From NCBI GenBank assembly GCA_041389085.1, contig JAWKSL010000001.1, positions 102,765 to 166,764 on the forward strand: a stretch of DNA of 64,000 bases. Reading direction: 5' to 3'. This DNA comes from Minisyncoccota bacterium (GTDB lineage Bacteria; Patescibacteriota; Minisyncoccia; UBA6257; 1-14-0-10-44-23). Below are positions 17,647 to 63,178 of this stretch, piece by piece. Position numbers and translations under genes: made by a program. Every line of letters starts with the position of its first letter. The first letter of the stretch is position 1. The notes below the pieces were generated by a model, which was given only the letters and a program-made list of their open reading frames with translations, was not told the origin of the DNA and ran no database searches.

Positions 17647-17653
17647 ACTAAAA

Positions 17654-18410: not shown

Positions 18411-18457
18411 TGCTCTAGAGCAAGCTCTATATTATGCTCTAGAGCATAATATAGAGC
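18411..18457. promoter_or_regulatory. operator-like palindromes: TGCTCTAGAGCA twice, second inside a 34 bp perfect palindrome
   Basis: 12-mer at 18411-18422 and 18435-18446; perfect palindrome gctctatattatgctctagagcataatatagagc 18424-18457. Confidence 0.5.
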
Positions 18458-18591
18458 AGACAGGGGAGTGGGTTTTTAAAAAAATTGCGCGAAGAGTTCG
18501 CAGTGTACGTGTTTGCTGCTTTTCACTTGCCATTTCTTTGAAATCATTGCATTATTCTCTCACCCCTAATTTCAGGGTGGAGGTCTTTCAT

Positions 18592-19518: not shown

Positions 19519-19523
19519 CGAGA

Positions 19524-19563
19524 GCGCTGGTGGCAGCAATGCCACTGGCGCTCAATTTTTTAT
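19524..19563 (+). terminator. intrinsic terminator
   Basis: gcgctggtggcagcaatgccactggcgc + ttttttat. Confidence 0.6.
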
Positions 19564-19620
19564 AAAAATCAAACGGCGCGGGCTTCCTTGCGGATGCTCG
19601 CGCCGAATGGCGTTGTGGGG

Positions 19621-20319: not shown

Positions 20320-20586
20320 GATGCTCTCCTGTTCTCCTTCCCCATAGGAAGGGCTGGTTGTACTAAAAGGAAGCCTAGCGTACTCGCTTGGCTATTTCAA
20401 ATTTTTACTAGATTCCTCCGATTGTTCCCTCGAATCCAGCTTGTAGGCCCCAGCGTATTAAAAAGTAGAGGGCTATTAGAAGAATTGCTCCGCCGATAAT
20501 CTTTTTTAGCATGTATTTGTAGTAGGATTTTGTTTTATTAGGCAATCAGTTAGGGGGCTTTCCAGCCGAAGTGTGGAGGGTCCTGC

Positions 20587-28637: not shown

Positions 28638-28666
28638 TTGACATTTCACTATTAATGTTTGATAGT
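28638..28666 (+). promoter_or_regulatory. sigma70-like promoter TTGACA-17-GATAGT
   Basis: perfect -35 28638-28643; upstream of 28692 gene. Confidence 0.35.
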
Positions 28667-28691
28667 AATTAAAGTCTTTGGAGGACGATCA

Positions 28692-29027
28692 ATGGGACTT
28701 CCCCGTAACTCGTATGACGCCCTCCTTAGGAGGGCGTGGGACATCTTGCAGGATCAGTGGGTTGACCACGTCAATCCGCGAGTCCTTGCATCGTGCGCCG
28801 TTGGTCGCGCGCGAGCTGAGCTTGCTGTTGCCATGAGCGCCCTGAGCGACGAAGAGAGGCACAGCATGTATGCCCGGCTCGAGAAGATGGAAGCGAAGCA
28901 CCGCGACCGTCTTCGAGAGCTTGCTGCTGAGCGCAAAGCTCGGCGGGCCAAGGCCTACTCAGGTAGCCTTCCTCGCTCACTGCGTGGTGGCAACCACGGA
29001 AATGCCCTTCCACGGGGCGACCGATAG
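28692..29027 (+). CDS. hypothetical protein (island G)
   Basis: GGAGG 6 nt upstream of ATG. Confidence 0.45.
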   Translation: MGLPRNSYDALLRRAWDILQDQWVDHVNPRVLASCAVGRARAELAVAMSALSDEERHSMYARLEKMEAKHRDRLRELAAERKARRAKAYSGSLPRSLRGGNHGNALPRGDR

Positions 29028-29122
29028 CAACGAGCGGCTTTTCCTAACGGAGAGGTCGCTCGTTTTGCTTTCACTACTTGCCGGGCGTATAATAAAGGCA
29101 ATATTCAATAACAATTTACTCC

Positions 29123-29557
29123 ATGAAAAAAACAAGTGTTCTTATATTAATCATCCTCGCTCTCCTCATCGGCTTTATGGTGTGGCGATTTATTAATATT
29201 TCGAAAAAGGACGCCATTGTTGTAATTGGAGAAGGAAGCGTTGAAGTAGTAGACCAGAAGCCAGGGCAGCTTGGTACCACAATAAAGGAAGTGCGCTTGG
29301 CGCAAAACGGGTTTGTAGTAATAAAGGGAGTAGTAAACGGCAATGCTGGAGTTACTGTAGGAGTAAGCAAACTTCTTCGCGCTGGAGTACACAAAAATGT
29401 GCAAGTACTCATGGAGCTTGTACCGGGGCAGGAGTACGCCGTATTTCTCTATGCGGACAACGGAAACGGAGTCTTTGATGACTTAGACGATGTGCTCATA
29501 GAAGAAAGCGAAGCTCACTTCTTCGTAGATGAAGATGAGGCCTTCTTTGGAAAATAA
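29123..29557 (+). CDS. membrane-anchored hypothetical protein
   Basis: N-terminal TM. Confidence 0.5.
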   Translation: MKKTSVLILIILALLIGFMVWRFINISKKDAIVVIGEGSVEVVDQKPGQLGTTIKEVRLAQNGFVVIKGVVNGNAGVTVGVSKLLRAGVHKNVQVLMELVPGQEYAVFLYADNGNGVFDDLDDVLIEESEAHFFVDEDEAFFGK

Positions 29558-29561: not shown

Positions 29562-29590
29562 AAAACCCGCGAAAGCGGGTTTTTTATTTT
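29562..29590 (+). terminator. intrinsic terminator
   Basis: aaaacccgcgaaagcgggttttttatttt. Confidence 0.7.
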
Positions 29591-30852
29591 CTTCGTATAA
29601 ACTTTGTGCGCTGTCTTCGCCCGAAGTTTATTGAAAACCGGTGTGCCTCGTCGCGCACTTGCTGGAAGACTTTTTTAGAACCAACTAAAAGCTCTTTGCC
29701 TACTTTTTTTGTATTTAAAATAACCAGCTTGTCGTTTTTCGCACTACTTTGACTGTGCATACCTGCTTTTGATAGGCCGACTACTGGAGGACGCATATTG
29801 TTTATAGCTAAAATGTCGCGCACTGCTTTTACTTGCGCGAGCCCACCGTCTACAAACACTATATCTGGCATAGCCCACTCGGCGTGCTTTATTCTTCGCT
29901 CGACTACTTCCTTGAGCATGTCTGTGTCGCTCTGAGTTTTTTCTCCTCTTATCTTGAAAATTCTATACTCTGCTTTGTTTGGCTCGTTGTCTTCAAACAC
30001 AACCATTGCGCCTACTGGTTCCTTACCGGCTAAATGACTTATATCGTAGCCTTCGATTCTTAGCGAAGAAAGTTCGTTTGATTTTTGCAGGAGTTTTGAA
30101 GACTTTTGCAAAAGCGCTATGTCGCGCACGTGGTCGAGGGCGCGAATAGCTTCGTTGCTCTTTTCCTTTTTGAGTGCTGAAAGGAGGCGCTTCTTTTCCC
30201 CTTTGAAGAAAAAAATAAGGTTTGAAATGTTTTTCTTATACTCTTTGCTACTCACCTGCCCCGTGCAGACACCCGGGCAAAGGCCTATTTGAAAATGGAA
30301 ACATGGGCGCTTTGAATTTGGTGTACATGTTGAGTATGGAAAGATCGGGCGCAAAAGCTCGAGGGCTGTTTTTAGAATTCGATAGCTTTGATATGGGCCA
30401 AATACATATACTCCCGCGCGCGGGCGACTTGTCCCCTGCGACATATATTTTGCTAAATCTTTTCCGCGCACTACAAGCAGCTTTGGAAAGTCTTTCTTCG
30501 TATCGATAACGAGGTAGATAAAAGACTTGTCGTCTTTTTCTTTTACGTTGTACTTTGGCCAATACTTTTTAATCAAGTTTGCTTCAAGTACCACTGCTTC
30601 AAGCAAAGTTTTTGTTTGCTCCCAATCAAGACTCACTGCCGTTTCTACCATCTCTGCTATACGGCTATCTTTCGTATTGAAGTAGTTTTGTAGTCTATTT
30701 TTTAACGAGCCTGCGCGGCCGATATAAAGAATATCGTTATTCGTGCGCCCCCGCCCAAGGCGGGTCCGCCTCTGGCGGAAAAAGTACACCCCTGGCTTAT
30801 TTGGGGCTTTCTTTGCTTTATTTCTAAGCTTGTCGCGTTTAGATTTCGGCAT
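29584..30852 (-). CDS. uvrC: excinuclease ABC subunit C, compact form lacking C-terminal (HhH)2
   Basis: GIY-YIG (KPGVYFF..ILYIGRAGSLKNRL), Cys4, UVR motif, endonuclease domain IEGYDISH...RDEAHRF; start set at MPKSKRD (30852). Confidence 0.85.
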   Translation of the reverse strand: MPKSKRDKLRNKAKKAPNKPGVYFFRQRRTRLGRGRTNNDILYIGRAGSLKNRLQNYFNTKDSRIAEMVETAVSLDWEQTKTLLEAVVLEANLIKKYWPKYNVKEKDDKSFIYLVIDTKKDFPKLLVVRGKDLAKYMSQGTSRPRAGVYVFGPYQSYRILKTALELLRPIFPYSTCTPNSKRPCFHFQIGLCPGVCTGQVSSKEYKKNISNLIFFFKGEKKRLLSALKKEKSNEAIRALDHVRDIALLQKSSKLLQKSNELSSLRIEGYDISHLAGKEPVGAMVVFEDNEPNKAEYRIFKIRGEKTQSDTDMLKEVVERRIKHAEWAMPDIVFVDGGLAQVKAVRDILAINNMRPPVVGLSKAGMHSQSSAKNDKLVILNTKKVGKELLVGSKKVFQQVRDEAHRFSINFGRRQRTKFIRRK

Positions 30853-30910
30853 AGTTGCTTTGGTTAGTATAAGCTTGAGCCCTCGCAATAGTCTACTGCG
30901 AGGGCTCGTA

Positions 30911-31144
30911 CTAGAAGCGAAGGCCTCCTTCCTGCCACCACCCTTTCGGCCATCGTAGCCTCTGAAAGGGCGGGTTGAAACGCGGAGGCATGTACTGGTT
31001 GCGCGGGCGCTTGCGAAGGCGCTCTTCCTCTGCCTCCTCAAAGGCCTTGAGCTCTTCGGGCGTGGGCGGGCGAAACTCGATCTTGCCGCCCGCTGCCCGG
31101 TGAAGCCTTGCGAGAATGTTGTCTTCTGGCGCTTGCTCTACCAT
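30911..31144 (-). CDS. hypothetical protein (island H)
   Basis: ORF only. Confidence 0.3.
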   Translation of the reverse strand: MVEQAPEDNILARLHRAAGGKIEFRPPTPEELKAFEEAEEERLRKRPRNQYMPPRFNPPFQRLRWPKGWWQEGGLRF

Positions 31145-31226
31145 GAAGGTCTCCTTTCACTTTTATTTTACCCCAAACTGAAGCGGCCACCCTGCGTAAT
31201 GCTGAGTGGCCGCTGCGTTGGTTGGG

Positions 31227-31766
31227 CTAGGCTTCCTCTCGGAAGAACCTGCCCTGCCCTGCGTCCTCGATGATCTTCTCTTGGACGCAGGCCTTGTGGA
31301 GCTCCTTGAACTTGGTTCGGAACTCTTCTGGGTCGATAAGCGCTTCAACTTCGAGGTCTGTGGTGGGGATTTCGCCCTTCTCACACCTCTCTGCCCGATC
31401 CAGCGCCCGTGCGAGCTCTCGCAGACGCTTATGTGCACGTCGGCGCAGCTCATCTCTTCCCAGCTCGAGCCCTTCCTCATCCACGCTGAGCTCATCTAGG
31501 ATCCGCCTCAGGCTGCGCTCGCGGTTTTGCAGAGTCGACAGCACCCACACAGATACTGCGAAAAGTGCCACTCCGATGAAGACTAGAGGGCTTAGCTCTG
31601 GCATGGGCGCTGCGAGCTTGGCTTCCCTGGGGAGATCACGATACGCATCATGCTGTATCGCATAGTAGATCACTCCGCCAAAAGATCCTACCATCCCGAG
31701 AACTAGCCCGAGGATTGAGCAGTTGATGGCTACATTGAGAGCCCGGTACTTTTGAATGATCTTCAC
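31227..31766 (-). CDS. hypothetical membrane protein (island H)
   Basis: GTG start, GGAAAGG upstream; two TM helices. Confidence 0.45.
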   Translation of the reverse strand: MKIIQKYRALNVAINCSILGLVLGMVGSFGGVIYYAIQHDAYRDLPREAKLAAPMPELSPLVFIGVALFAVSVWVLSTLQNRERSLRRILDELSVDEEGLELGRDELRRRAHKRLRELARALDRAERCEKGEIPTTDLEVEALIDPEEFRTKFKELHKACVQEKIIEDAGQGRFFREEA

Positions 31767-31890
31767 TTGAAACCTTTCCGACCTTCGCGCAATGGAGGTT
31801 TCATCACCTCACTCCTGCAAGGATTCGCGCCCCTGCAACAGCACTTCATTGCCACGCATTGGCGGTCGTTTTGCCAATTTCGCTTCTATT

Positions 31891-35215: not shown

Positions 35216-35285
35216 AGTATTGCGCCCCCATTTAACTCTATGGGGGTGATATGTGTAAACCTAGTATATACAAACTGGCTTTTTT

Positions 35286-35324
35286 GAAAAGTTTCAACCC
35301 CGCGGCGCATGATGCGACGCGGGG
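35286..35324 (-). repeat. repeat module copy 1 (hairpin terminator gaaaagtttcaa-ccccgcg..cgcgggg)
   Basis: 38/39 identical to 35766-35804. Confidence 0.7.
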
Positions 35325-35338
35325 TCTACTGGTGAGAG

Positions 35339-35746
35339 CTATGCATTTGCATTCTCTGCAAGCCAGGCGATGGCTCTGAGCTCCCTCTCTTCTCCTGGCC
35401 GCTGCTCTATATCCGCACCGACCCTCTTGCCGGAGAATTTGATGGGCCCCTTATCCCTTACGACCATGAGCATCATGATCTTGCCATTCCTGTGCCACTC
35501 GACATCGATCTGCTCACCGCGAGCTACTTCGGCATAGGTTGGCAAGGGAAAGCCGGGATACCTCTTCGCTGCCTTTCTAAGGTAGCGAATGAGCCTTCTC
35601 TGCGCCCTTTTGACAGCCTTGAGCTTCAGCTCTAAGGGCTCGCCCTCTGAGTCGAGAAGGTACGCTTCTGGAATGAGGCGGCGCCTCAATCTCCGAATGA
35701 ATGCTTCTACTCTTTGCACGACTAACTCCTTTTTTTCTTTCTGCAT
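35339..35746 (-). CDS. hypothetical protein (island I)
   Basis: ORF; alternative GTG start with GGAG RBS. Confidence 0.4.
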   Translation of the reverse strand: MQKEKKELVVQRVEAFIRRLRRRLIPEAYLLDSEGEPLELKLKAVKRAQRRLIRYLRKAAKRYPGFPLPTYAEVARGEQIDVEWHRNGKIMMLMVVRDKGPIKFSGKRVGADIEQRPGEERELRAIAWLAENANA

Positions 35747-35765
35747 TCATTTTTATGTATTGAAT

Positions 35766-35804
35766 GAAAAGTTTCAACCCCGCGGCGCATGGTGCGACGC
35801 GGGG
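35766..35804 (-). repeat. repeat module copy 2
   Basis: see copy 1. Confidence 0.7.
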
Positions 35805-35815
35805 TTGCGTTGAAG

Positions 35816-36079
35816 CTAGGCATCTACGCCTGCTCTGCGAAGGAACCTGCCGGCGCAGTCGCGAACCTCTCGCGAAAACTTCCTGCGCCTCTCCATCTCT
35901 GGAGCGACTAGGACCACCATGGCCTGGCCGACCTGCTTGGCTGTGCCAGTAAGGTCGCCAAGAAGCTTCTGAATCGACTCCTCGGCTCCCTTGCCCTTCG
36001 GGTCTCTGAGGTCGCACCCGATCATGTTGAGGATGCACGCTTCGTTGAGCGTTGCTCGAAAGACTACTTCCTTGGGCAT
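35816..36079 (-). CDS. hypothetical protein (island I)
   Basis: ORF. Confidence 0.35.
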   Translation of the reverse strand: MPKEVVFRATLNEACILNMIGCDLRDPKGKGAEESIQKLLGDLTGTAKQVGQAMVVLVAPEMERRRKFSREVRDCAGRFLRRAGVDA

Positions 36080-36516
36080 GTTCGCCTCCTTTGGGTGCTG
36101 TTTTCCAGAAATACTTCTAGTTGCCTAGCAAGCATCTCTGGAGTGGTCGTGTGAGTTACTACTCTACTGTCTTCCGACGTGCAGACGCCAAGGATCTCCT
36201 TGGCAGCTCTCAGGCTCTCCGGCTTGGGGTACCCGGTACGGTCGATGTAGCCACTGTCAATTGGCTTCTTCACTTGCGCCTCCTTCTTGTAGCGCACACT
36301 AGCCCTATCCAAGATCTCCCTTGCACTTTTCAGCGTTTTTTCTGAGAACGCCTCCTTTTTCTTCCTGGCTACGAGTGCCTCCATGCACCGAGCGATATCG
36401 ACTGAGGGGCCGCTGAGTTTGCCGACAAAGCGATCTACGCTCTCTGTATCACCCCTTCCTAAGGCGACTGCGATGACCATGAGAAAATTGGCTTGATCGA
36501 TGGTGACCCGTGACAT
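36064..36516 (-). CDS. hypothetical protein (island I)
   Basis: ORF overlapping downstream gene by 16 nt. Confidence 0.4.
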   Translation of the reverse strand: MSRVTIDQANFLMVIAVALGRGDTESVDRFVGKLSGPSVDIARCMEALVARKKKEAFSEKTLKSAREILDRASVRYKKEAQVKKPIDSGYIDRTGYPKPESLRAAKEILGVCTSEDSRVVTHTTTPEMLARQLEVFLENSTQRRRTCPRK

Positions 36517-36561
36517 CTACACCTCCTTGGTCTACTCCTAGCTTAGAGCGAGTTAAAAGGC

Positions 36562-40332: not shown

Positions 40333-41020
40333 GGCGCTTTTCTCGCCTTAGAGCCTTACTAAGGGCTTTTCTTAAATCTGCTTTTGTAAATTGAGGCCAG
40401 AGCTTTTCAGTAAAATAGAAGTCGGTGTTTGCAGCCTGCCACATCATAAACCCTGCTGACCAGTGTGGTTCCCCTCCTGTGCGTATAACGAGGTCTAGGT
40501 CTGGGAGCGACCCAGTCTGAAGGTTTTTCCTAAACTCTTCTTCTCCCTTCTTCCCACCCATCTTACGGGCTGCCTCTAGCACTTCTTTCCTCCCATCGTA
40601 GCCGAAAAGAATTGTGAGAAAGTGATCTTTATTTTTCTCTGTTTTTTGCTCAAGCGCTGCTATGCACTTATCGAGCTCTTTATCTTTTACTATCTTAGCA
40701 CCGTCGCCAACTATTCTCACCTGCACTCCTTCGTCCATCAAATCGCTACTTTCTACCATTTCTTTTAGATAGCTTTTAAGGAGGCGCACCAAAAAGGCTA
40801 CTTCTTGCTTTGAGCGCTTCTGAAGATTGTCTATCGATGCAGCCCAAAAAGTAAGGTAGCGAACATCGTTCCTAAAACTCTCCTTCATAATCTGCTCAAA
40901 CTGAGCAGCTCCTTTTTTGTATCCGTTCCACAAACTAAGCTTCGCGCCGCGCGCAAAGCGCCTGTTTCCATCTGGAATTATTGCTACGTGGTTCAAACTC
41001 ATGTCTTTCAAGAATATCAC
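40322..41020 (-). CDS. uppS: isoprenyl transferase (undecaprenyl diphosphate synthase)
   Basis: HVAIIPDGNRRFA motif. Confidence 0.9.
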   Translation of the reverse strand: MIFLKDMSLNHVAIIPDGNRRFARGAKLSLWNGYKKGAAQFEQIMKESFRNDVRYLTFWAASIDNLQKRSKQEVAFLVRLLKSYLKEMVESSDLMDEGVQVRIVGDGAKIVKDKELDKCIAALEQKTEKNKDHFLTILFGYDGRKEVLEAARKMGGKKGEEEFRKNLQTGSLPDLDLVIRTGGEPHWSAGFMMWQAANTDFYFTEKLWPQFTKADLRKALSKALRREKRLGK

Positions 41021-41066
41021 TATTTAAAAGTCGTGGGCGGGAACATTACTGCTCCCGCCCATGCGG

Positions 41067-41378
41067 TCAGCTGGCCCTGCGCAGCGGCGATACAATTCGC
41101 CGGCGCTTGTAGCCTGCTGACTGGAAGAAGTTCGGCGCCTTCCGGAAGATTCTCCCATCTGAGCTCTGATAGACCGTGAAGCGAAGCTCCTTGTCTGTCT
41201 TTGCCCTTTCAAGAAGAGTCCACAGAATGGACTTGGCGTTCTCAGGGATGTCGAGGACATGCACCTGCTTGCCGCCAATCTCGATAGGCCGAACTGCTGT
41301 GTCATGTGCGCCATCTGCCAGCGCACCTGCGAGGGCGTTTCGCGCCTTCTCGCTCTGCGTATATACGTACCATCGCAT
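41067..41378 (-). CDS. hypothetical protein (island M)
   Basis: ORF followed by hairpin gggcggga/tcccgccc at 41037-41062. Confidence 0.4.
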   Translation of the reverse strand: MRWYVYTQSEKARNALAGALADGAHDTAVRPIEIGGKQVHVLDIPENAKSILWTLLERAKTDKELRFTVYQSSDGRIFRKAPNFFQSAGYKRRRIVSPLRRAS

Positions 41379-41450
41379 CGCAATGCCTTTCCGCAGGCTA
41401 GGAATCTAACCCAGCACGAAACTATGACAGCTTTACTCAAAAAGTAAAGT

Positions 41451-42221
41451 CTAAATGTTGAAAAGTAGAATGAAGGCGAGGATAGCGAATGCTATGCGGT
41501 AGTAGCCGAATGCTTTGAAGTCGTTTTGCTGAATGAACTTCAGAAGAAACTTTACTGCGGCGAGGGCAACAACGAAAGACACGGCGCATCCGATCAGCAG
41601 AAGCCTTATCTGCTCTGCGGTAAATACTGGAGCTGTCTTGAGAAGGTCGAGCCCGGTTGCAGCTGCCATCGTTGGGATGGCCAGAAGGAAAGAAAACTCC
41701 ACAATTGCTCTGCGGCTCAATCCAAGGCCAATACCACCCAAAATCGTTGCTGCGGCTCTTGATACTCCTGGTACTATGGCAAGGCTCTGAAAGAGGCCGA
41801 TGCTTACTGCTTGTTTTATTGTTATGTCCTTTACCTCTGTGCCTTCTTTTTCTTTGAACATGTATTCGAAAATGATGATTGCTACTCCTCCGAGAAAGAG
41901 AGCGTAAAGCACCGTTGTGGTAGAGCCAAGCAAGACGCTTTTTACAATTGGGTATGCAAGGAGTCCGATAACTGCTGTTGGTATAAAGGCGCAGAGCACT
42001 TTTATAAACGTATCTTTATCGAGCAGAAGACGCCTCCAGTATAAAAAGAGTACGGCAAGGATGGCTCCAAGCTGTATTGCTATTTCAAATGTAGTTAAAA
42101 AGCTGCTTTGCTCAACGGCGAGAGCCTTTGCTGCTATAATTAAGTGGCCTGTTGAAGATATTGGCAAAAACTCAGTAATACCTTCGACAATACCTAGGAT
42201 AATTGCTTGCAGAACTGTCAT
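41451..42221 (-). CDS. uppP: undecaprenyl-diphosphatase
   Basis: multi-TM with PGVSRAAATI motif. Confidence 0.85.
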   Translation of the reverse strand: MTVLQAIILGIVEGITEFLPISSTGHLIIAAKALAVEQSSFLTTFEIAIQLGAILAVLFLYWRRLLLDKDTFIKVLCAFIPTAVIGLLAYPIVKSVLLGSTTTVLYALFLGGVAIIIFEYMFKEKEGTEVKDITIKQAVSIGLFQSLAIVPGVSRAAATILGGIGLGLSRRAIVEFSFLLAIPTMAAATGLDLLKTAPVFTAEQIRLLLIGCAVSFVVALAAVKFLLKFIQQNDFKAFGYYRIAFAILAFILLFNI

Positions 42222-53356: not shown

Positions 53357-53678
53357 TGCTCCGCGCAGGGATCGAACCTGCGACATCTTCGTTACGCTTT
53401 ACCTACTATTACTAGTAGTGCGGACTATATCATCGTCTTTCTATTTCTAGCGAAGACGCAAGGCGCTTCCCGTTGTTACGTAGCATGCTACGTAACAGCC
53501 GAGTACTCCCTTTTCGGGATAGTCTCTGAACCTTCCTACCCAAGGGCCAAGGCTTGGCTGCTGATTGCCCAGCCTAGACTGGGTTTCCAGCAATTCACCT
53601 TGTTTTTCAATCTGCATTTCTGCGAACCTGCGACATCTTCGTTAACAGCGAAGCGTTCTACCACTGAACTACCGCGGA
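53357..53678 (-). tRNA. tRNA-Asn(GUU) gene interrupted by group I intron
   Basis: minus strand: UCCGCGG-UA-GUUCAGUGGUAGAAC-G-CUUCG-CUGUUAA-CGAAG-AUGUC-GCAGG-UUCGAUC-CCUGC-GCGGAGC-A when exons joined (near-identical D/anticodon arms to E. coli tRNA-Asn); acceptor pairing imperfect in hand fold. Confidence 0.55.
53394..53644 (-). ncRNA. group I intron (approximate bounds)
   Basis: R element GGUUCAGAGACUA (53515-53532) and S element GAUGAUAUAGUCC (53421-53433) forming P7; P9-like hairpin CUACUAGUAAUAGUAG; terminal G; 22 nt direct repeat at 53372-53393 and 53623-53644. Confidence 0.65.
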
Positions 53679-55170: not shown

Positions 55171-55195
55171 TTGTTTACTTTATCTTTTTAGTAAG

Positions 55196-55415
55196 TATAA
55201 TGGCACTAGCGGTTCGATGATGCAATAAGCGGTTTCTTGCCGAACCTAGCCCTTGTCGCGGAGTACAGCTGTGCGAAACTTTCTTTGTCGCATCTTCGGC
55301 ATCTGCCGAGACTGTCAGCAGAACAGCCATTGCGGTGGCTGCACCTGCTGCCGGACCTGACCGTCCGATCAACTCTCCCGTGCTATCAACTCGTATAGCG
55401 CGGGAGCTCTTTTTT
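55196..55415 (+). ncRNA. candidate ~200 nt noncoding transcript antisense to gatB leader
   Basis: TATAAT at 55196-55201 with TTTACT 16 nt upstream; terminator ctcccgtgc..gcgcgggag + tcttttttt at 55376-55415; no RBS-supported + ORF; strong internal hairpins. Confidence 0.25.
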
Positions 55416-55929
55416 TAAGAATCTCTATATTTCTTCTGTGCCAACCTAGCTCCCTTTGCCACTTCTTTGAGAGTCTAAAATTTAGCAATTTTCTTTCAAT
55501 TTTTGTAAGCGGGATGCCCTCTTTTTCTATTGAATGCCCGCTTACAAACGCGCTCACTGCTGATTTTGGATACCCCATTAGCTCTCCGACCTCCCTTTTT
55601 CTTATTGTTGCGTCTCCACTCCTCTCTGCCCTCTCTATTTTTTTTAGCGTCCTGCGAGTCTTTGCTACCTCACTGAATACCGTTAAATCACTGTCTTTGA
55701 TTGGGTAATTTATCCTTGGGTTGATGATTAGTTTATTCGCCTTTAGGTATTCTTCAAATTTTCTTATTCGTTCCCTGAAATCCTTCTCTGCTATTCCCTT
55801 TTCTTTACGATATGAAATTTCTACTAGGGCAGCTTTTTTTCTTCCACTCTTAAGCAAAACCAAATCTACTAACTCGCTTAAGCATAAAATGTCTTGAAAA
55901 TTTTCGATGCCCTCTAATATTCTTTTCAT
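55369..55929 (-). CDS. hypothetical protein
   Basis: start set at MKRILEG (55929). Confidence 0.45.
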   Translation of the reverse strand: MKRILEGIENFQDILCLSELVDLVLLKSGRKKAALVEISYRKEKGIAEKDFRERIRKFEEYLKANKLIINPRINYPIKDSDLTVFSEVAKTRRTLKKIERAERSGDATIRKREVGELMGYPKSAVSAFVSGHSIEKEGIPLTKIERKLLNFRLSKKWQRELGWHRRNIEILKKRAPALYELIARES

Positions 55930-55964
55930 ATGCAGAGGATAGCGCAGGGGCCTAAAAAGTGAAA

Positions 55965-55993
55965 GGCGCCGGCACACATGGTGTGACGGCGCC
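55965..55993 (-). repeat. palindromic repeat copy 1 (ggcgccggcacacatggtgtgacggcgcc)
   Basis: three near-identical copies with aaaagt(c/g)aaa flank. Confidence 0.75.
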
Positions 55994-56004
55994 CTCGCTG
56001 GCCC

Positions 56005-56334
56005 CTAGAGGGGCTCGTCTGACCTGCGCACGAAGACAAGCAGGTCGACCTCCTTGTCTGCTCCTTCGACCTCGATGACGTCGTAGAGTCGGTGCACCTC
56101 ATTGGTCTTCTGCGGAATCCTCTCGAAAGCATCGATGAATTTCTGATCGATCTTGCAGTCTTCGAAAATCCTCTCTTCGTCGTTCATCGCGACGAAGATC
56201 TGGACAGCATCGAGGAAGCTATCCCTCGTATCCTCGAACCGCCTCCCTGAGACGGCGTAGTTGAGGTTGAGAGCGACCGCGCTCCACAGCCCATCTTCAT
56301 CGGGACAAATCAGGACCCTTACTTCTCTTTGCAT
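56005..56334 (-). CDS. HicB-like/DUF1902-like small protein (island J)
   Basis: LICPDEDGLWSAVALNLNYAVSG...DSFLDAV pattern resembles HicB N-domain; paralog of 56759..57085. Confidence 0.4.
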   Translation of the reverse strand: MQREVRVLICPDEDGLWSAVALNLNYAVSGRRFEDTRDSFLDAVQIFVAMNDEERIFEDCKIDQKFIDAFERIPQKTNEVHRLYDVIEVEGADKEVDLLVFVRRSDEPL

Positions 56335-56398
56335 TCTAATCCTCTCTTTTGCGACGAAGGGTCCTTACAGGCTAGGCTTTTGACTAAAAAAAGTCAAA

Positions 56399-56427
56399 GG
56401 CGCCGACACACATGGTGTGCCGGCGCC
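56399..56427 (-). repeat. palindromic repeat copy 2
   Basis: ggcgccgacacacatggtgtgccggcgcc. Confidence 0.75.
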
Positions 56428-56452
56428 CTATGAGTTTGTTAGCTTGAGCACG

Positions 56453-56668
56453 CTAGCTCTGACGGCCGAGGAAGGCAGCCTTGCTGAGGTTCGCCTGCAG
56501 CCCCTGCAGGACCCTGCGCTCGTGCATCTCTTCGCGCCGCATCTTGTCTTGGTAGACCTCGATGTAGCGATCGCACTCGCCCTTCGTGCCACAGAACACT
56601 TGGAGCCCTGCCCTCATGACTCGGTGGTACCTCTTGTCCTTTTTGATGCAGAGGAACTCGATCCGCAT
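56453..56668 (-). CDS. small hypothetical protein (island J)
   Basis: ORF between repeat copies. Confidence 0.3.
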   Translation of the reverse strand: MRIEFLCIKKDKRYHRVMRAGLQVFCGTKGECDRYIEVYQDKMRREEMHERRVLQGLQANLSKAAFLGRQS

Positions 56669-56722
56669 GCCACGTCTCCTTTCTACTTTCTAGACTAGCC
56701 TATGCTATTTATAAAAGTCAAA

Positions 56723-56751
56723 GGCGCCGGCACACATGGTGTGACGGCGCC
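56723..56751 (-). repeat. palindromic repeat copy 3
   Basis: identical to copy 1. Confidence 0.75.
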
Positions 56752-56758
56752 CTGATTG

Positions 56759-57085
56759 CTAGGCGGCGATGATGGGGACGCAGTTGATCGCGAAGACGTA
56801 GGGGGTGCCCTTCAACGTCTCGTAGCGCGCGATACCGCGCATAAGTCCGTTGAATTGCCTGGCACACCTGAGTACCTCCTTGGCCTTGTCGCGAGTACTA
56901 GGCCTGGCCTCCAAGTCCTCCCCTTCAACAAGGCGCCGCCCGACTTCTGCGATGAACGCGTCGATCGCCTCCTTGGTGTCTGCCCCTTTTGCGCGCAGAG
57001 TGCTGCCCGTGATCCCTTGCACAGCCCAACTCCCGTCTTCCTGACAGAAAAGCAGGGCTGCAACCTCTTTCTTTTCTTTATTCAT
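56759..57085 (-). CDS. HicB-like/DUF1902-like small protein (island J)
   Basis: LLFCQEDGSWAVQGITGSTLRAKGADTKEAIDAFIAEV. Confidence 0.4.
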   Translation of the reverse strand: MNKEKKEVAALLFCQEDGSWAVQGITGSTLRAKGADTKEAIDAFIAEVGRRLVEGEDLEARPSTRDKAKEVLRCARQFNGLMRGIARYETLKGTPYVFAINCVPIIAA

Positions 57086-57186
57086 GATTCACCTCCTCTA
57101 CCAGCCTAAACTTAGGAGGCGGGTATGTCAAAAATGTTTACGCCCCCGAGTCCTTGCGGAATCGGGGGCGCGTATTGCGTTGAGCG

Positions 57187-57732
57187 CTAGCTCGGGATCG
57201 GATCGGGATAGGCCTGCGGTTCTTCGAACCCGCAAACCGGACAATCCCTCTTGCCGCACCTGCAGCTGGGCCCTCCCACCTTGATGGTAGGGTAGCAGTC
57301 TTCGACAAGGTCGGTGGGCCTACTCCTGACGTCGATCATTTGCATGCGTGCTTCCATGAGCTCGCCAGCCGAAAGATCGACCTCTCCGATATGTATGCCC
57401 AGCTCCTCGCTGCAGCCCTTGGGGGCGAACTCCTTGAGCACCTTGCCGGCAAGCACACTAGCGCTTCGCGGGAAGAGCAAGATCTTCCCCTCCATCGTGA
57501 CTAGCACGATGACGTATCGACCCTTCTCTAGAAAGTCCTTCCCCCGCGATACGTCTGCGCCTCGAAGAGTTGAAGGCGCATGCCCCCTCTCTCCAGGCAC
57601 TAGGCACCAAGCGCCTACGTACCTTGCAGGAATCTTGTCGGCAAAGGTGCTGCTACCGCGAGATGAATGGGTGATGTCGATTGCACCTGCGGGGATGAGC
57701 TTCCGAAGCCACTGACGCTTTGAAATGGGCAT
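57187..57732 (-). CDS. hypothetical protein with C-terminal zinc ribbon (island J)
   Basis: CRCGKRDCPVCG; hairpin cgcccccga/tcgggggcg at 57125-57160. Confidence 0.4.
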   Translation of the reverse strand: MPISKRQWLRKLIPAGAIDITHSSRGSSTFADKIPARYVGAWCLVPGERGHAPSTLRGADVSRGKDFLEKGRYVIVLVTMEGKILLFPRSASVLAGKVLKEFAPKGCSEELGIHIGEVDLSAGELMEARMQMIDVRSRPTDLVEDCYPTIKVGGPSCRCGKRDCPVCGFEEPQAYPDPIPS

Positions 57733-57898
57733 GTGCCCTCCTGGTCTGGAACGCGGGGTTTTAGCCCGCTTAGCAGATTTTTAAGCTGGAACGCAGAGGC
57801 ACACGCCATCTGCTTAGCAGCTCAGGTTCTAATATAATTATCGCATATTTTACCTATTTTGTCAATATCTCCTTTTTTGACTGCTTTTGCGGCGTACA

Positions 57899-57930
57899 AA
57901 AAAGAGCCCTTTTGGGCTCTCTTTAATATT
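57899..57930 (-). terminator. intrinsic terminator after rplK
   Basis: aaaaaagagcccttttgggctctc hairpin with flanking A/T runs. Confidence 0.65.
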
Positions 57931-58355
57931 TAGTCTTTTACTTCTATACCCATGTTCTTTGCGGTACCTTCGATGATTTTTGCTGCTTGGTCTACGTCGT
58001 AAGCATTTAGGTCGTTTAACTTCTTTTCTGCTATTTCGCGAACCTGAGCTTTTGTTACCTTTCCTACTTTCTGAGTAAGTGGATTTCCTGCTCCCTTCTC
58101 TACTCCGGCCGCTTTCTTAAGCATGTCTGAAGCTGGAGGAGTTTTAAGGATAAAGGTGAAGCTTCGGTCTTCGAAGATAGTGAGAACTGCTGGGATAACC
58201 TGGCCCATCATTTCTTTTGTAGCGTCGTTAAACTGCTTGCAGAAGTCTGCAATGTTTATACCGTGTGGCCCAAGCGCCGTTCCTACTGGAGGAGCTGGAT
58301 TTGCTTGTCCTGCTGGGATTTGAATTTTTACTGTTGCTTTTATTGGCTTTGCCAT
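57930..58355 (-). CDS. rplK: 50S ribosomal protein L11
   Basis: [25 protein letters not shown]. Confidence 0.95.
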
Positions 58356-59167: not shown

Positions 59168-61144
59168 TTAGATATCGAGGTTCTTTACGTTGAGCGCGTG
59201 GCTCTGGATGAATTTTGAGCGTGGGGCTACGTTTTCTCCCATCAGGATGTCGAAGAGCTTATCTGCCTCCTTAGCGTCGGCAACAGTGATCTGCTTGAGC
59301 ACTCTATTTTCCTTATTCATAGTAGTGTCGGCAAGCTGGTCGGCGTTCATCTCTCCAAGTCCCTTGTAGCGCTGGATTGAAACTCCTTTTACTCCCTTGA
59401 GGGCGTCGTCCCCTTCTGACTCGTCTATCTGCACACCCTTAGACTTAGCGATTTTCTTAAGAAGCGCGTCTTTTTCGTCGTCTTTATATACGTAGGTCTT
59501 CTCTTTTCCGTTTTGAATAAGGTAGAGCGGTGGCTGCGCTACATACACGTGTCCACTCTTAATAAGCTCTGGGAAGTAGCGGTAGAAAAGAGTAAGCAGC
59601 AAGGTGGTAATGTGGCGGCCGTCGACATCAGCGTCGGAGAGGATGATTATCTTGTGGTAGCGAAGTTTGTTTATGTCGAAGTTTTCTGCGATCGCGGTAC
59701 CAAAAGCGATAACGAGAGATTTGATTTCTTTGTTGGCGAGCATCTTGTCGATACGAGCTTTCTCAACGTTGAGCGGCTTTCCTCGAAGTGGAAGTACTGC
59801 CTGAGTCTTCTTGTCGCGACCCATACGTGCGCTACCACCTGCGCTGTCTCCCTCTACGATGAAGAGCTCACTTTCTTCTGGGTGTTTTGAAATACAGTCG
59901 GTAAGTTTTCCTGGAAGCTGAAGCCCTTCAAGCGCACCCTTTCGAATAACGGTGTCTCGAGCAGCCTTTGCAGCTTTGCGCGCCTTTGCAGCAAGAATAC
60001 ACTTTTCTACAATCTTCCCTGCGTCTTTACTGTTTCTCTCAAAGAAGTTTTTCAGCGCTTCTCCTACTGCGCTTTCAACTGCGGTACGAGCTTCTGGGCT
60101 ACCGAGCCTACTCTTTGTTTGCCCTTCAAACTGTGGTTCGCGAAGCTTTACTGAAACAATAGCGGTAAGTCCTTCGCGCGCATCCTCTCCGGTGAAATTG
60201 TTTTCTTTTGCTTTTAGATAGTTGTTTGCCACTGCCCAGCTGTTGAGCGTACGGGTTAGGGCTGTTCTAAAACCGGTAAGGTGCATTCCTCCGTCTGGAG
60301 TATAAATGTTGTTGGCGAAGCTGAGCTCCTGAGTTTCTATTTCGTCTGTGTAGGTGAAGGTAACTTCTACTTGAATGTCGTCTACTGTTTTTTCTACGTA
60401 GAAAATTTCGTTCTGCACTACGGTGCGGTCTTCGGTGAGGTGGCGGATAAATGAAAGAAGTCCTCCGTCGAAATAAAATCCGTGGAAGGCCGCTGGTGCT
60501 TGGCGGTGATCAATAAACTCAATGTTTATTCCTTTCGTAAGGAAGGCTTGGCGGCGAAGACGCTCAAGAATAGTTTTTGTACTAAACTCGGTTGTTTCAA
60601 AAATTGAAGCGTCTGGTTTAAAGATTATCTTAGTTCCGGTACCTTTTGCGGTGCCAGCTTTCTTTACCGCTCCCTGCGGTTTTCCAATTTTGTACTCTTG
60701 TACATAAAGCGCGCCGTCTCTCTTTACCTCTGCGCGAAGATATTCTGAAAGAGCGTTTACAACTGAAACTCCTACTCCGTGCAAACCTCCTGAAACTTTA
60801 TACCCTTCTCCTCCAAACTTTCCTCCTGCGTGTAGCACTGTAAGAACTGTCTCAAGTGTAGACTTTTTTGTTTGTGCGTGCTTTTCAACTGGAATTCCTC
60901 GTCCGTCGTCTGATACTGCAACGTGCCCGTCTGCCAAAAGCTCAACGAGAACGTTTTTCGCGTGGCCAGCCATGGCCTCGTCGATAGAGTTGTCTACAAC
61001 CTCCCAAATAAGGTGGTGCAACCCAGCTACATCGGTGGTACCGATGTACATACCTGGTCGCTTTCGTACTGGATCGAGCCCTTCGAGGACGGTAATGTCT
61101 TTCGCGCTATATCCGCTTTTCTTCGCTTTTGCTTCTTTCGGCAT
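59168..61144 (-). CDS. gyrB: DNA gyrase subunit B
   Basis: GHKL ATPase motifs, Toprim; start set at MPKEAKAK (61144). Confidence 0.9.
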   Translation of the reverse strand: MPKEAKAKKSGYSAKDITVLEGLDPVRKRPGMYIGTTDVAGLHHLIWEVVDNSIDEAMAGHAKNVLVELLADGHVAVSDDGRGIPVEKHAQTKKSTLETVLTVLHAGGKFGGEGYKVSGGLHGVGVSVVNALSEYLRAEVKRDGALYVQEYKIGKPQGAVKKAGTAKGTGTKIIFKPDASIFETTEFSTKTILERLRRQAFLTKGINIEFIDHRQAPAAFHGFYFDGGLLSFIRHLTEDRTVVQNEIFYVEKTVDDIQVEVTFTYTDEIETQELSFANNIYTPDGGMHLTGFRTALTRTLNSWAVANNYLKAKENNFTGEDAREGLTAIVSVKLREPQFEGQTKSRLGSPEARTAVESAVGEALKNFFERNSKDAGKIVEKCILAAKARKAAKAARDTVIRKGALEGLQLPGKLTDCISKHPEESELFIVEGDSAGGSARMGRDKKTQAVLPLRGKPLNVEKARIDKMLANKEIKSLVIAFGTAIAENFDINKLRYHKIIILSDADVDGRHITTLLLTLFYRYFPELIKSGHVYVAQPPLYLIQNGKEKTYVYKDDEKDALLKKIAKSKGVQIDESEGDDALKGVKGVSIQRYKGLGEMNADQLADTTMNKENRVLKQITVADAKEADKLFDILMGENVAPRSKFIQSHALNVKNLDI

Positions 61145-61287
61145 AATGTAAAAAAGGCACAAATCGCCTTTGTTTAAAGCTATTTTAGCCCAAATTGCCC
61201 TATAAATCAATTGCCATACCAAGCTCAAAATGCCATACTTTTTTAGCGTTCCTGCATAGTGTGGGAGGCATGGGCTAAGGAGGTCTC

Positions 61288-61680
61288 TTGAACACCATCG
61301 GCAATTTCTGCATTAGGGCGAGCATCTTGATGCGGGTCGTCACCGAAGGCAGGACCTATTCGCTCAGGGCAGCGTTCCCCGAGAAGGGTTACAGCAGGGG
61401 TGAGAAGAGGATGGCAATTGGCTTCCTCAAGCGCTTGCGCTCCATGCAGAGAGCTCGCGATCTGCACGGCACGTACAGCGGAGCTGGTGCTGCCATTCCC
61501 TGCCAAGTACTTCGCCACTCTGGTGAGCGTCTACGCGGCACGCTCTGCTGGACCAAGCAGGTGGTTGGGAGTGCTCGACTCGCCCTGCGTCTTGACCCCA
61601 ACCCTCTCTACGCCAATGATTTCTTCTCCCCCGCTGTTTTTAACCATGGGAAAGAAGATGCACTTCTGGTCTTGGTCTAG
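61288..61680 (+). CDS. hypothetical protein (island K)
   Basis: TTG start with AAGGAGG 4 nt upstream; hairpin at 61690-61735. Confidence 0.35.
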   Translation: MNTIGNFCIRASILMRVVTEGRTYSLRAAFPEKGYSRGEKRMAIGFLKRLRSMQRARDLHGTYSGAGAAIPCQVLRHSGERLRGTLCWTKQVVGSARLALRLDPNPLYANDFFSPAVFNHGKEDALLVLV

Positions 61681-61732
61681 CCTCAGGGTCGGAAGACGAA
61701 TTCGCCGCTTTCTCTTCGGAGGGGGCGGCGAT

Positions 61733-63178
61733 TTACTTTATAGAAAAGTCGTTGGCGTTGTTGTCTGTGTCTTGTAGGCGCTCAAGTCTTTTGTTTGCTC
61801 CTGGGTTTTCTGGATATGGCGCCGTTTCTGCAAAAATATTTTCTGCGCTTCCCCACGCGACTGAGTCGGTTATCTGGCCCGTATCTTGATCGCCAAAGCG
61901 AATCGCTACTCCGTTGTCATTTGAAATCGATGCTGAAGTGCGCGTGTCTGCTTGTACGTCAGTGTAGTTTGAGTTCGCCCACATGTACGTCTCCCCCGGC
62001 TGTAAAAATACATCTTCAGTGAACGATTTAATCGAGCTGTCGGTAGAGCCTGTCTTTGTTCGCTTTACGAGCCGGTAGCCATTTAGGTTCACTTCTTCAT
62101 CGGAGTCGTTTTTAATAACAATGAGGTCGTTTGTTGTGAGCCCTTGGCCGCCAGTTATTTGCACTGATTGGATAATGAGCCTTTTTGCCTCTTGCTGCAT
62201 CTCGGGCTTTTCTTCTGGCTCTTCTGTTTCTATAACGACCGCTTCTTCGTCTTCAAAGATTCCTAATTTTGCGTCTTCCTCGCTTTGCTCTGCTTGTTGA
62301 TTTTCTTTATCTTGGGAATTGTTTGTTTTCTTAACTACTATCTCTATTGGGTTATTTTTTGCTGGGCTTCCTCCTGTCTGATGACTACTGTACCAACTTA
62401 AGTCTGGCGCTCTTTGAGCTGTAAGCCTTTTCGCTGAATTTCCTGCTGGCCAATTTGGCGCCGCTAAAACTTCGTCTTGTAAGCGGCAGCTTTCATCAAA
62501 GAGCCTTAGCCCCTCATCTGTATTTGCTAAGGCGCCTGTATACAGCGGAGCTTCTATTTTGGTTAATACGCGCTCCCCTCTCTTTACTAAATAAAGTGCT
62601 GCCTCTGGCAAAAGCACTCCGTCGGTAATGGTTATTTTTATCTGCTCGGCTTTATCGATGATTGCCCAGCCGGAAATATCTTTTTCTTTATCGGAAATGT
62701 TTTTGAGCTCTATCCATTCGTTGTTCGAACTATCTTTATCGCCAGCCCAATTTACTTCGTTAAAAATAACCGTTGATTGGTCGGGTAGAAAGTCGGTAGT
62801 AAATTCGCACTCGGTGTCTTCACTCTTTACCCTTTTTGTAGACTTACTCTCTGCAAGAATTTCTTTTCTTACTTTTGGTTGCGAGCTGTCTACAAAAACT
62901 CCCGGTACCTCCTCTTTGCTTTTCGTGGCTACTCCTTGGTAAGCGACAGGAGAAGAAACACCGAGGACTTTTTCTTCTGGCAAAACTGCTACCGGTAAAA
63001 CTTCTTGCTGTGTATACGCCTCTCTTGTAGTGGCTAGGAGCTCAAACTGTTCCTCTTTTTGAAACGCCCCAGCAACTTTTGAAAACGCAGCATCTACAAC
63101 CGTGGAGAGGCTCGAGCCCACAAAAGCTCCGAGTGCGATAAGTAAAAATGCCTGCTTGTTTTCTTTTAAAAAGGTCAA
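61733..63178 (-). CDS. secreted protein with two lamin-tail (LTD) domains
   Basis: signal/TM; NEVNWAGDKDSSNNEWIELKN LTD motif twice. Confidence 0.6.
   Translation of the reverse strand: MTFLKENKQAFLLIALGAFVGSSLSTVVDAAFSKVAGAFQKEEQFELLATTREAYTQQEVLPVAVLPEEKVLGVSSPVAYQGVATKSKEEVPGVFVDSSQPKVRKEILAESKSTKRVKSEDTECEFTTDFLPDQSTVIFNEVNWAGDKDSSNNEWIELKNISDKEKDISGWAIIDKAEQIKITITDGVLLPEAALYLVKRGERVLTKIEAPLYTGALANTDEGLRLFDESCRLQDEVLAAPNWPAGNSAKRLTAQRAPDLSWYSSHQTGGSPAKNNPIEIVVKKTNNSQDKENQQAEQSEEDAKLGIFEDEEAVVIETEEPEEKPEMQQEAKRLIIQSVQITGGQGLTTNDLIVIKNDSDEEVNLNGYRLVKRTKTGSTDSSIKSFTEDVFLQPGETYMWANSNYTDVQADTRTSASISNDNGVAIRFGDQDTGQITDSVAWGSAENIFAETAPYPENPGANKRLERLQDTDNNANDFSIK

Follow-up and report, generated by a model that had tools for sequence, protein, structure and literature searches.

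Four orphan genes with putative terminator/promoter joints form a conserved array between rplK and gatB in a Paceibacterota chromosome

The 64-kb window analysed here (the whole stretch of DNA under study) holds, on its minus strand between rplK and gatB, an array of four small genes, g1 to g4, punctuated by conserved hairpin elements. The reading that we hold to be somewhat likelier than its negation is that of a vertically inherited array of four insulated transcription units, which encode orphan proteins, are separated by joints combining a terminator with a promoter, and occupy a synteny breakpoint between rplK and gatB. The locus has a definite anatomy, departs from random expectation and is conserved in a second genome, and its open reading frames (ORFs) are under purifying selection; the double role of the joints would follow from their arrangement.

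The host is represented by a metagenome-assembled genome (MAG) of Candidatus Paceibacterota (candidate phyla radiation, CPR/Parcubacteria). NCBI has an exact match for the g1 protein, MEZ4156524.1 ('MAG: hypothetical protein R3B52_00905 [Candidatus Paceibacterota bacterium]'), encoded on a contig of 312,629 nt, so that the window belongs to the chromosome of such an organism, a tiny uncultured bacterium; proteins MEZ4156521-MEZ4156524 of this MAG bear the locus tags R3B52_00890-00905. CPR genomes are very small and their lineage-specific genes are mostly of unknown function; how such genes are acquired, expressed and kept is poorly understood. At this locus a set of orphan genes has been retained long-term at a fixed site under purifying selection, with non-coding parts far better conserved than the proteins and with what looks like a regulatory grammar of their own, GC-rich terminators with long stems being fused to promoters, unlike that of the host's core genes.

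Anatomy, age and selection

The order of genes on the minus strand is gyrB, secE, nusG, rplK, the array, an AT-rich ORF of 186 aa, gatB and a tRNA gene with a group I intron (coordinates of the array and its surroundings in Table 1). The intrinsic terminator of rplK marks the end of the core secE-nusG-rplK unit. From 55,936 to 57,836 the GC content is about 56%, against about 44% in the core; in 300-nt windows it is 0.51-0.61 across 55,850-57,800 and 0.39-0.47 in the flanks, and a 200-nt scan bounds the GC-rich patch at 55,869-57,847 (GC 0.559). GC at third codon positions (GC3) is 0.65-0.86 in the array genes, against 0.37-0.52. A reading made from the letters alone (the sequence-only reading) had described four GC-richer minus-strand ORFs here, in agreement with these scans. 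A GGAG-type ribosome-binding site stands ahead of every array gene.

Two contigs from the Logan assemblies bear on the age of the locus. The first, L003 (run SRR32608987, found by exact look-up of g1), matches the window without a single difference from the terminator of rplK to within g2. The second, L004 (2,076 nt, from a third run, SRR23004066), carries a g1 homologue, P0002, and shares with the window the promoter and leader as well as the hairpin joints; its four ORFs have 179, 106, 71 and 107 aa (181, 108, 71 and 109 aa in the window, all length differences being multiples of three), and the start of gatB comes next. The border comprising the rplK terminator, the promoter and g1 is spanned by both contigs, and L004 continues through the whole array into gatB. 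Because two independent assemblies agree, and the four genes recur in L004 in unchanged order, the array is neither an assembly artefact nor a recent insertion. The only structural difference between the window and L004 is a 766-nt segment after the last joint.

Silent sites of the array genes are saturated between the two genomes (proportion of synonymous differences, pS, 0.58-0.76) and the ratio of non-synonymous to synonymous divergence (dN/dS) is 0.25-0.43, so the ORFs are real genes under purifying selection. Along the locus, each joint stands out at 80-88% identity and the promoter and leader of g1 at 93-100%, against 25-75% inside the genes. In gatB, within the small sample of 11 alignable codons, all four four-fold degenerate sites differ and the protein motif is unchanged, which suggests that the two genomes are distant overall and that the array pre-dates their split.

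These comparisons modify the earlier picture of an array inserted into a conserved ribosomal cluster. The compositional distinctness and the reality of the locus stand; recency does not, since L004 has the same genes in the same order and place. Nor does the array interrupt the cluster at rplK-rplA: gatB, not rplA, lies downstream of it, none of rplA, rplJ and rplL was found among the Pfam-screened ORFs of the window, and some Parcubacteria are reported, as a group, to lack ribosomal protein L1, the product of rplA (bioRxiv 10.1101/2022.01.07.475337, which cites Brown et al., 2015). As this loss is known, and as the order rplK, array, gatB recurs in L004, the break after rplK is a feature of the lineage and not damage caused by the array. 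Disguised, divergent L10 and L12 were also considered for g1 (~180 aa) and g2 (~110 aa), given their position after rplK and the leader; this was rejected because matches to Ribosomal_L10/L12 are lacking and the composition is foreign.

Table 1. Coordinates of the array, its predicted signals and its immediate surroundings
Feature	Position in the window	Strand	Description
rplK	57930-58355	-	Pfam Ribosomal_L11; directly upstream of the array
rplK intrinsic terminator	57899-57924	-	A-tract, short GC stem, T-tract (host style); 5' end of contig L003 identical
P1 (predicted promoter)	57837-57865	-	TTGACA, 17-nt spacer, TG-extended GATAAT (TGnGATAAT); 11/12 matches; AT-rich, host-like
g1 5' leader	57733-57836	-	104 nt; HP1 57783-57823, HP2 57745-57777, then ribosome-binding site GGAGGG
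g1	57187-57732	-	181 aa, orphan; R3B52_00905 'hypothetical'; dN/dS 0.25
T1 hairpin after g1	57141-57170	-	12 pairs, one internal mismatch, 4-nt loop; -27.1 kcal/mol, z = -5.5
P2 (candidate g2 promoter)	57103-57131	-	TTGACA (57131-57126), 17-nt spacer, TAGGCT (57108-57103)
g2	56759-57085	-	108 aa, orphan; R3B52_00900; L004 orthologue 40% identical
J2-3 hairpin	56723-56751 (within 56692-56751)	-	-24.4 kcal/mol, z = -4.7
J2-3 promoter (putative)	56692-56721	-	U-rich tail with TTGACT (56721-56716), 18-nt spacer, TAGTCT (56697-56692)
g3	56453-56668	-	71 aa, basic orphan; pI 9.8 (9.95 in L004); dN/dS 0.43
J3-4 hairpin	56399-56427 (within 56369-56427)	-	-32.1 kcal/mol, z = -7.7; mid-stem G.U, fully paired
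J3-4 promoter (putative)	56369-56397	-	TTGACT (56397-56392), 17-nt spacer, TAGCCT (56374-56369)
g4	56005-56334	-	109 aa, acidic orphan; pI 4.4 (4.8 in L004); R3B52_00890; dN/dS 0.41
6-2-6 inverted repeat GCCCCTAGAGGGGC	56001-56014	.	Spans the g4 stop codon; encodes the conserved C-terminus ...P-L-stop
J4-x hairpin	55965-55993 (within 55936-55993)	-	-27.7 kcal/mol
J4-x promoter (putative)	55936-55963	-	TTCACT (55963-55958), 16-nt spacer, TATCCT (55941-55936)
186-aa ORF	55369-55929	-	AT-rich (40% GC); weak HTH-like similarity; between the array and gatB; absent from L004

The four proteins are orphans. P0002 is the sole homologue of g1 both among 5.8 billion clustered proteins and in an exhaustive profile search of 1.84 billion representatives; apart from it, the word-indexed searches of the 5.8 billion gave back only the array proteins themselves, and no homologue of g1-g4 was found outside the one relative. 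None of the four matched Pfam or NCBIfam (even at E<=1), PHROGs, PADLOC or PDB sequence profiles; relatives were absent from IMG/VR, the searches of GenBank phages and plasmids yielded noise or nothing, and the 64-kb window holds no paralogues. Exact-protein look-ups of rplK, g3, g4 and the 186-aa ORF returned no record. Identity to the L004 orthologues is 53-55% for g1, 46% for g3 (61% over its N-terminal 46 aa) and 45% for g4. AlphaFold2 (AF2) models of g1 and g2 (pLDDT, the predicted local distance difference test, of 40 and 48) are too poor for a fold search.

Three labels given earlier to these proteins find no support. The C-terminal Cys4 knuckle on which the zinc ribbon of g1 was based is absent from its only orthologue. 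Profile-profile comparison (hhalign) of g2 with g4, formerly taken for paralogues, gives a probability of 3%, so no relation between them is detectable. A HicB-like nature of the two is likewise unsupported: they have no Pfam, NCBIfam or PADLOC match at E<=1, no HicB chain appears among PDB sequences at E<=10, and there is no HicA-like ORF; this test is one at the level of sequence, the fold of g2 not being judgeable from a model of pLDDT 48. The second palindrome reported over a gene stop is present, as GCCCCTAGAGGGGC at the stop of g4. Its core CCCCTCTAGGGG also occurs in L004, and constraint on the encoded protein may explain this conservation.

Promoter, leader and joints

The sequence of P1 is that of a strong sigma-70-type promoter. 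In the surrounding 60 nt, the window and L004 are 93% (56/60) identical, all four differences lying upstream of the -35 box, and positions 57856-57817 are 100% identical. The leader that follows has a minimum free energy of -42.9 kcal/mol (z = -3.4) and contains two tandem hairpins, HP1 and HP2, each with an identical 4x4 internal loop, CUAA/GUUC. Between HP1 and HP2 there are three compensatory pairs, with all cells paired; between genomes the leader is identical at 102 of 103 positions, and the three differences all fall in loops or the linker. A block of ~190 nt (57,705-57,896, minus strand), made up of P1, the leader and the opening seven codons of g1, is 93-100% identical between the genomes, while the genes are only 62-69% identical at the nucleotide level. 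Rfam has no match for the leader or for the hairpins, and the leader motif occurs nowhere else in the window or in IMG/VR. From its form, it resembles a protein-binding cis-regulatory RNA or an operator pair, and it may be a new cis-regulatory RNA.

The hairpins after g2, g3 and g4 belong to one family. The 29-mer GGCGCCG-N-CACAC-ATG-GTGTG-N-CGGCGCC is present at 55965, 56399 and 56723 with 0, 2 and 0 mismatches, at spacings of 324 and 434 nt, and with the common flank AAAAGT(C/G)AAA (AAAAGTCAAA) it makes a repeat unit of 41 nt with 93-100% identity. The three palindromes and their flank had been recognised correctly in the sequence-only reading, as had the different hairpin after the fourth gene, g1 (T1); the distance from stop codon to hairpin, put there at about 10-40 nt, is 7, 25 and 11 nt. 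The 64-kb window has no further copy at <=3 mismatches (0 expected, 100 shuffles), and a covariance model built from the six known copies and run with filters off finds no extra one, the next best hit scoring 19 bits against 68-75 bits for the true copies.

This confinement to the array agrees with the earlier expectation that the 29-mer is not a generic terminator, and it leaves very little probability to a chance placement here of dispersed selfish repeats, of the repetitive extragenic palindrome (REP)/REPIN type or the miniature inverted-repeat transposable element (MITE) type. Short imperfect palindromes in intergenic DNA are what such elements would look like. The three copies in 64 kb, however, sit in one array, in one orientation and at a constant position relative to stop and start codons; they show no inverted doublets or target-site duplications, and outside the window a search of 185,579 GTDB species genomes, the JGI metagenomes and IMG/VR found only a single-copy Streptomyces terminator. 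That match is a perfect-stem version, GGGGCGCCGGCACACATGGTGTGCCGGCGCCCC (L001, 1602-1632; L002, 835-865), which in both Streptomyces mutomycini and a Streptomyces-like contig from a metagenome serves as the terminator between one and the same pair of convergent genes. It is probably due to convergence, and possibly a faint trace of a high-GC donor. A link of the palindrome to restriction-modification, through avoidance or enrichment of GGCGCC, was also rejected (19 sites observed, 14.6 expected).

Since the genes are on the minus strand, the AAAAGTCAAA flank reads UUUGACUUUU directly 3' of the hairpin on the coding strand. This tail is U-rich and contains TTGACT 17-18 nt upstream of a conserved TAnnCT. 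The three 29-mer hairpins fold at -24 to -32 kcal/mol (z -4.5 to -7.7). From the succession of hairpin, U-rich tail, TTGACT and -10-like box we infer that the repeat is a terminator-plus-promoter joint, at which transcription would both end and begin. The sequence-only reading had compared the locus to a cassette array: the small genes with a standard hairpin unit are there, and what it overlooked is that the flank looks like part of such a joint. After g1, T1 resembles the 29-mer in shape and is unrelated to it in sequence, and P2 follows.

Comparison with L004 supports the promoter half of this interpretation. In the four junction promoters, 46 of the 48 positions that make up the -35 and -10 hexamers are identical, with spacing fixed at 16-18 nt, whereas the spacers of the first three (P2-P4) are only 27/52 (~52%) identical; hexamers kept while spacers diverged thus form a phylogenetic footprint of the -35 and -10 elements. 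In P2 both hexamers are identical and only 8 of 17 spacer positions agree. The two variants (window/L004) are TAGTCT/TAGGCT in the -10 box of J2-3 and TTCACT/TTTACT in the -35 box of J4-x, and in J4-x the spacer and -10 box together are identical at 21 of 22 positions.

In the mechanism proposed, P1 and the two-hairpin leader would drive g1, the ordinary hairpin T1 would then be followed by P2, and the same composite joint would stand after g2, g3 and g4. Its first element would halt the arriving transcript: a GC-rich stem of 13 positions, made up of 7 bp, a variable position and 5 bp, and capped by a 3-nt loop. Its second would be the U-rich tail UUUGACUUUU, which holds the -35 box TTGACT; and from its third, the -10-like TA(G/T)NCT 16-18 nt downstream, transcription of the next gene would start again. 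J4-x, as the last joint, would supply a promoter to what lies downstream, gatB in L004 and the 186-aa ORF in the window. Read in this way, the joints would make each array gene an insulated transcription unit.

Several points weigh against this reading. The -10-like boxes match TATAAT at 3-4 of six positions and were missed by the consensus scan; that scan labelled only one of the three 29-mers (J3-4) terminator-like, because the other two carry a mid-stem mismatch; and the U-tract is interrupted by GAC. The conservation claims come from one comparison of two genomes, the window and L004, the depth of core-genome divergence was judged from the 11 gatB codons and ~60 nt of intergenic DNA, and the copy number of the 29-mer was counted within 64 kb of a 312-kb contig. 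Given the strength of P1 and the common strand of all the genes, the locus could equally be a single operon whose hairpins act as attenuators. P1 would then transcribe g1-g4 and the downstream gene without internal promoters, and the hairpins would be partial attenuators or 3'-end stabilisers that set the amounts of the cistrons, as REP and bacterial interspersed mosaic elements (BIME) do in E. coli. We regard this as an unlikely alternative, to which the strength of P1 (11/12 matches plus TG), the short gaps, the weak internal -10 boxes and the mid-stem mismatch in two of the three window hairpins all lend weight. It accounts poorly for the recurrence of TTGAC(A/T) and TAnnCT at constant spacing in all four joints with spacers only ~52% identical, for stems as stable as -24 to -32 kcal/mol with a U-rich tail behind, and for L004, where the essential gatB lies ~48 nt past the last hairpin and the only promoter-like element between them is that of the joint. 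Should the joints be merely terminators, the finding would shrink to an ordinary, well-insulated accessory operon.

In the 29-mer all 12 stem pairs (24/24 bases) are invariant in the six copies, three per genome, while the mid-stem position (paired in 2/6) and the 3-nt loop vary freely; the loop is CAT in all three window copies, and the L004 copies each differ. The L004 counterpart of T1, by comparison, is a hairpin of similar shape with no shared sequence. T1 has thus kept only its shape and the 29-mer its sequence, so the 29-mer is constrained in sequence and not in structure alone. Because the stem sequence is invariant, a specific factor probably also recognises it, whether in the RNA or in the DNA, where the palindrome is centred near -51 of the promoter that follows; g3, small and basic, could be named as this factor by pure conjecture.

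The DNA version can be carried further: the palindrome, at about -51 of P3, P4 and P5, would bind a dimeric regulator, possibly encoded by the array, that co-regulates the three promoters, and the hairpin would be secondary. Arms (GGCGCCG and CACAC) that are invariant in six copies around a varying centre and inter-segment position, the fixed placement immediately upstream of each -35 box and the small, basic g3 are in keeping with this. However, arms of 13 bp are unusually long for an operator, the palindrome always lies just past a stop codon with the stable stem and U-rich tail of a terminator, P2 has no such palindrome, and no DNA-binding domain is detectable in g1-g4 with Pfam or NCBIfam. 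As the main account of the palindrome we consider this improbable; it is compatible with the terminator/promoter joints, the two not being mutually exclusive. If the joints are bifunctional and recognised by a factor, they would be compact natural insulators and a handle for finding further accessory arrays in CPR.

Neighbouring features and other GC-rich inserts

The 186-aa ORF lies outside the conserved array, since it is absent from L004, which passes from 55936 directly to gatB at 55157. The 766-nt segment wholly missing from L004 comprises this ORF and the region of a candidate small RNA of ~200 nt (55174-55416, plus strand), which lies between the ORF and gatB, antisense to the local gene direction, and has a sigma-70-like promoter (TTTACT-16-TATAAT, 55174-55201), a strong terminator (55375-55406 plus T-run), a fold with z = -3.3 and no match in Rfam. 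The tRNA gene with a group I intron (53402-53678, minus strand) is supported by an Rfam Intron_gpI hit of 81.6 bits and a partial tRNA match; ARAGORN called no tRNA in the window. No target-site duplications or att-like direct repeats were found at the borders of the island.

The high GC3 of the array genes is seen in both lineages although silent divergence is saturated; partial amelioration from a very GC-rich donor and active maintenance are both possible. The deviation is shared by other genes, the window being a mosaic in which ~20 genes with a GC content of 0.53-0.60, and for the most part a GC3 of 0.55-0.77, lie among core genes of 0.39-0.48. Hardly any of these GC-rich genes, which are placed between core genes, matches Pfam; examples are found at 6648-8171, 9946-10565, 12105-20456, 28640-29131, 30739-31767, 40917-41812 and 60873-61768, the 12.1-20.4 kb block including a trypsin-like peptidase (13041-13835) and an HTH_17 (helix-turn-helix) protein (19621-20319).

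A second GC-rich array occupies 35230-36560 (minus strand), between uvrB and the methyltransferase-uvrA genes, with three orphan ORFs (150, 87 and 135 aa) that have no Pfam matches. Its joints are two near-identical copies of ACCCCGCGTCGCA(C/T)CATGCGCCGCGGGGTTGAAACTTTTCA at 35297-35325 and 35775-35807; each of its two ACCCCGCGTCGCAYCATGCGCCGCGGGGTTGAAACTTTTCA copies forms a mismatched stem of 13-14 positions with a 3-nt loop, fused to a -35-like TTGAAA. The design matches that of the 29-mer joints and the sequence is different. Host terminators, in turn, differ in style (A-tract, short stem, T-tract). Because of this second array, the GC-rich genes of the mosaic and the differing host terminators, the rplK-gatB array belongs to a genome-wide class of GC-rich inserts of orphan genes that have a regulatory style of their own. 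A literature search on GC-rich islands in CPR genomes returned nothing relevant.

At 16581-17191 (plus strand), two tandem paralogous CxxC...CxxC ORFs (87 and 88 aa) are each followed by a hairpin AGAGCCACTC-N4-GAGTGGCTCT with a T-run, and the second of these hairpins runs into TTGACA. The hairpins at 57141-57170 (T1) and 15391-15416 (minus strand), 42 kb apart and otherwise different, have a common 3' tail, AAACATTTTTGA(C/T)A (57123-57140 and 15375-15390), in which a terminator tail merges into a -35-like box. In the uvrC ORF (29584-31041, minus strand), a GC-rich stretch of ~63 aa (MRRQRKSAF...) extends the N-terminus and overlaps the GC-rich insert next to it; the protein probably begins in fact at the internal MPKSKRDK.

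Comparison with known systems

The closest likeness in design is to the promoter-early stem-loops (PeSLs) of T4-like phages, in which a repeated intergenic stem-loop terminator is combined with a sigma-70-type promoter and a Shine-Dalgarno sequence (PMC2839356, PMC4122927). PeSLs sit between small ORFans in plastic regions between core blocks, and a part in modular shuffling is ascribed to them (Arbiol et al., 2010, PMC2839356; Comeau et al., 2014, PMC4122927). The array joint likewise appears to place a stable stem-loop and a sigma-70-like -35/-10 pair in the gap that separates a stop codon from the Shine-Dalgarno sequence and start of the following gene. In contrast to PeSLs, the array is in a CPR chromosome, with gyrB-secE-nusG-rplK upstream and gatB downstream, and has no PHROG or phage matches; its hairpin lies wholly upstream of the -35 box and is fused to it, the stem is GC-rich and invariant in sequence, and the -10 boxes are weak (3-4/6). 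No shuffling or mini-circles were seen, and gene content is identical in the one relative, L004.

Phage morons, as independent transcription units, carry a promoter and a terminator of their own, a GC content unlike that of their neighbours and a position between conserved genes (PMC3594210; Juhala/Hendrix). The array units resemble them in their predicted promoters and terminators and in their deviant GC and GC3. They differ in that there is no prophage context and no phage gene nearby, in that four tandem units share one standard joint, and in that the array is present in both genomes and older than their split.

With integrons and clusters of attC sites lacking integron-integrases (CALIN), the array shares a tandem row of small genes in one orientation, with a similar imperfect palindrome after each. 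Sites of the attC type span 57-141 nt and comprise R''/L''...L'/R' boxes (RYYYAAC...GTTRRRY) together with extrahelical bases; their cassettes are usually devoid of promoters, and in chromosomal integrons the repeats within an array are nearly identical. The palindrome of the array, by contrast, has 29 nt, no AAC...GTT boxes occur in the conserved 53-nt unit, promoter-like elements are present, and the bases at the one mid-stem mismatch are not constant and pair in 2/6 copies; no intI was found nearby, among the Pfam-screened ORFs of at least 250 aa and the neighbours of the array.

A role of the joints as recombination sites is to be judged quite unlikely. Genes would be gained, lost or swapped by crossover at the joints, either by homology, as in PeSL mini-circles, or site-specifically, as at integron attC, and the array would be a landing pad for mobile genes. 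In keeping with this, unrelated genes are indeed flanked by near-identical joints, and within-genome homogenisation is suggested by the CAT loop common to the window copies and not to those of L004; the second array with its own private joint family, a cargo whose GC and GC3 deviate from the core, and the extra 766 nt past the last joint in the window point the same way. Yet the only relative has the same four cassettes in the same order despite saturated silent divergence, the unit is too short and lacks attC R'/R'' boxes, and relatives of the cargo were not found in IMG/VR, GenBank phages or plasmids. Neither integrase nor transposase is among the ORFs that were screened with Pfam (at least 250 aa) or are evidently housekeeping; here a helicase, uvrA/B/C and gatB were judged by sequence and gyrB by product length and position, with dinB, a Kef-type membrane protein and ORFs below 250 aa outside the screen. 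The likeness to cassette arrays or MITE/REP-punctuated loci drawn from the letters alone thus finds no attC boxes, dispersed copies in the window or recombinase among these ORFs to support it.

REP, BIME and REPIN elements occur in tens to hundreds of dispersed copies per genome, are associated with RAYT (REP-associated tyrosine) transposases, and can attenuate transcription or stabilise upstream mRNA. The 29-mer is like them a GC-rich, imperfect, intergenic palindrome downstream of stop codons and unlike them in its three co-oriented copies confined to a single array, as tested within the window. Ordinary Rho-independent terminators, for their part, keep their shape and not their sequence. 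A GC-rich stem and a U-rich tail directly after a stop codon are common to them and to the 29-mer, which differs in having kept 24/24 stem bases in six copies and in its apparent fusion to a promoter; T1 behaves as an ordinary terminator. From CRISPR the array is set apart by its 324- and 434-nt intervals, each of which holds a conserved ORF, whereas CRISPR spacers are non-coding and ~30-40 nt long.

The array thus has the architecture of PeSLs and morons and lacks their context. As a tentative proposal, to which we give a low probability, GC-rich orphan arrays with private, invariant joints could be the chromosomal counterpart of PeSLs in CPR, a 'socket' that accommodates accessory genes between core genes without disturbing their expression, with joints and leader read by a factor that the array encodes. 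If this were true, it would amount to a previously undescribed grammar of gene acquisition and insulation for streamlined episymbionts.

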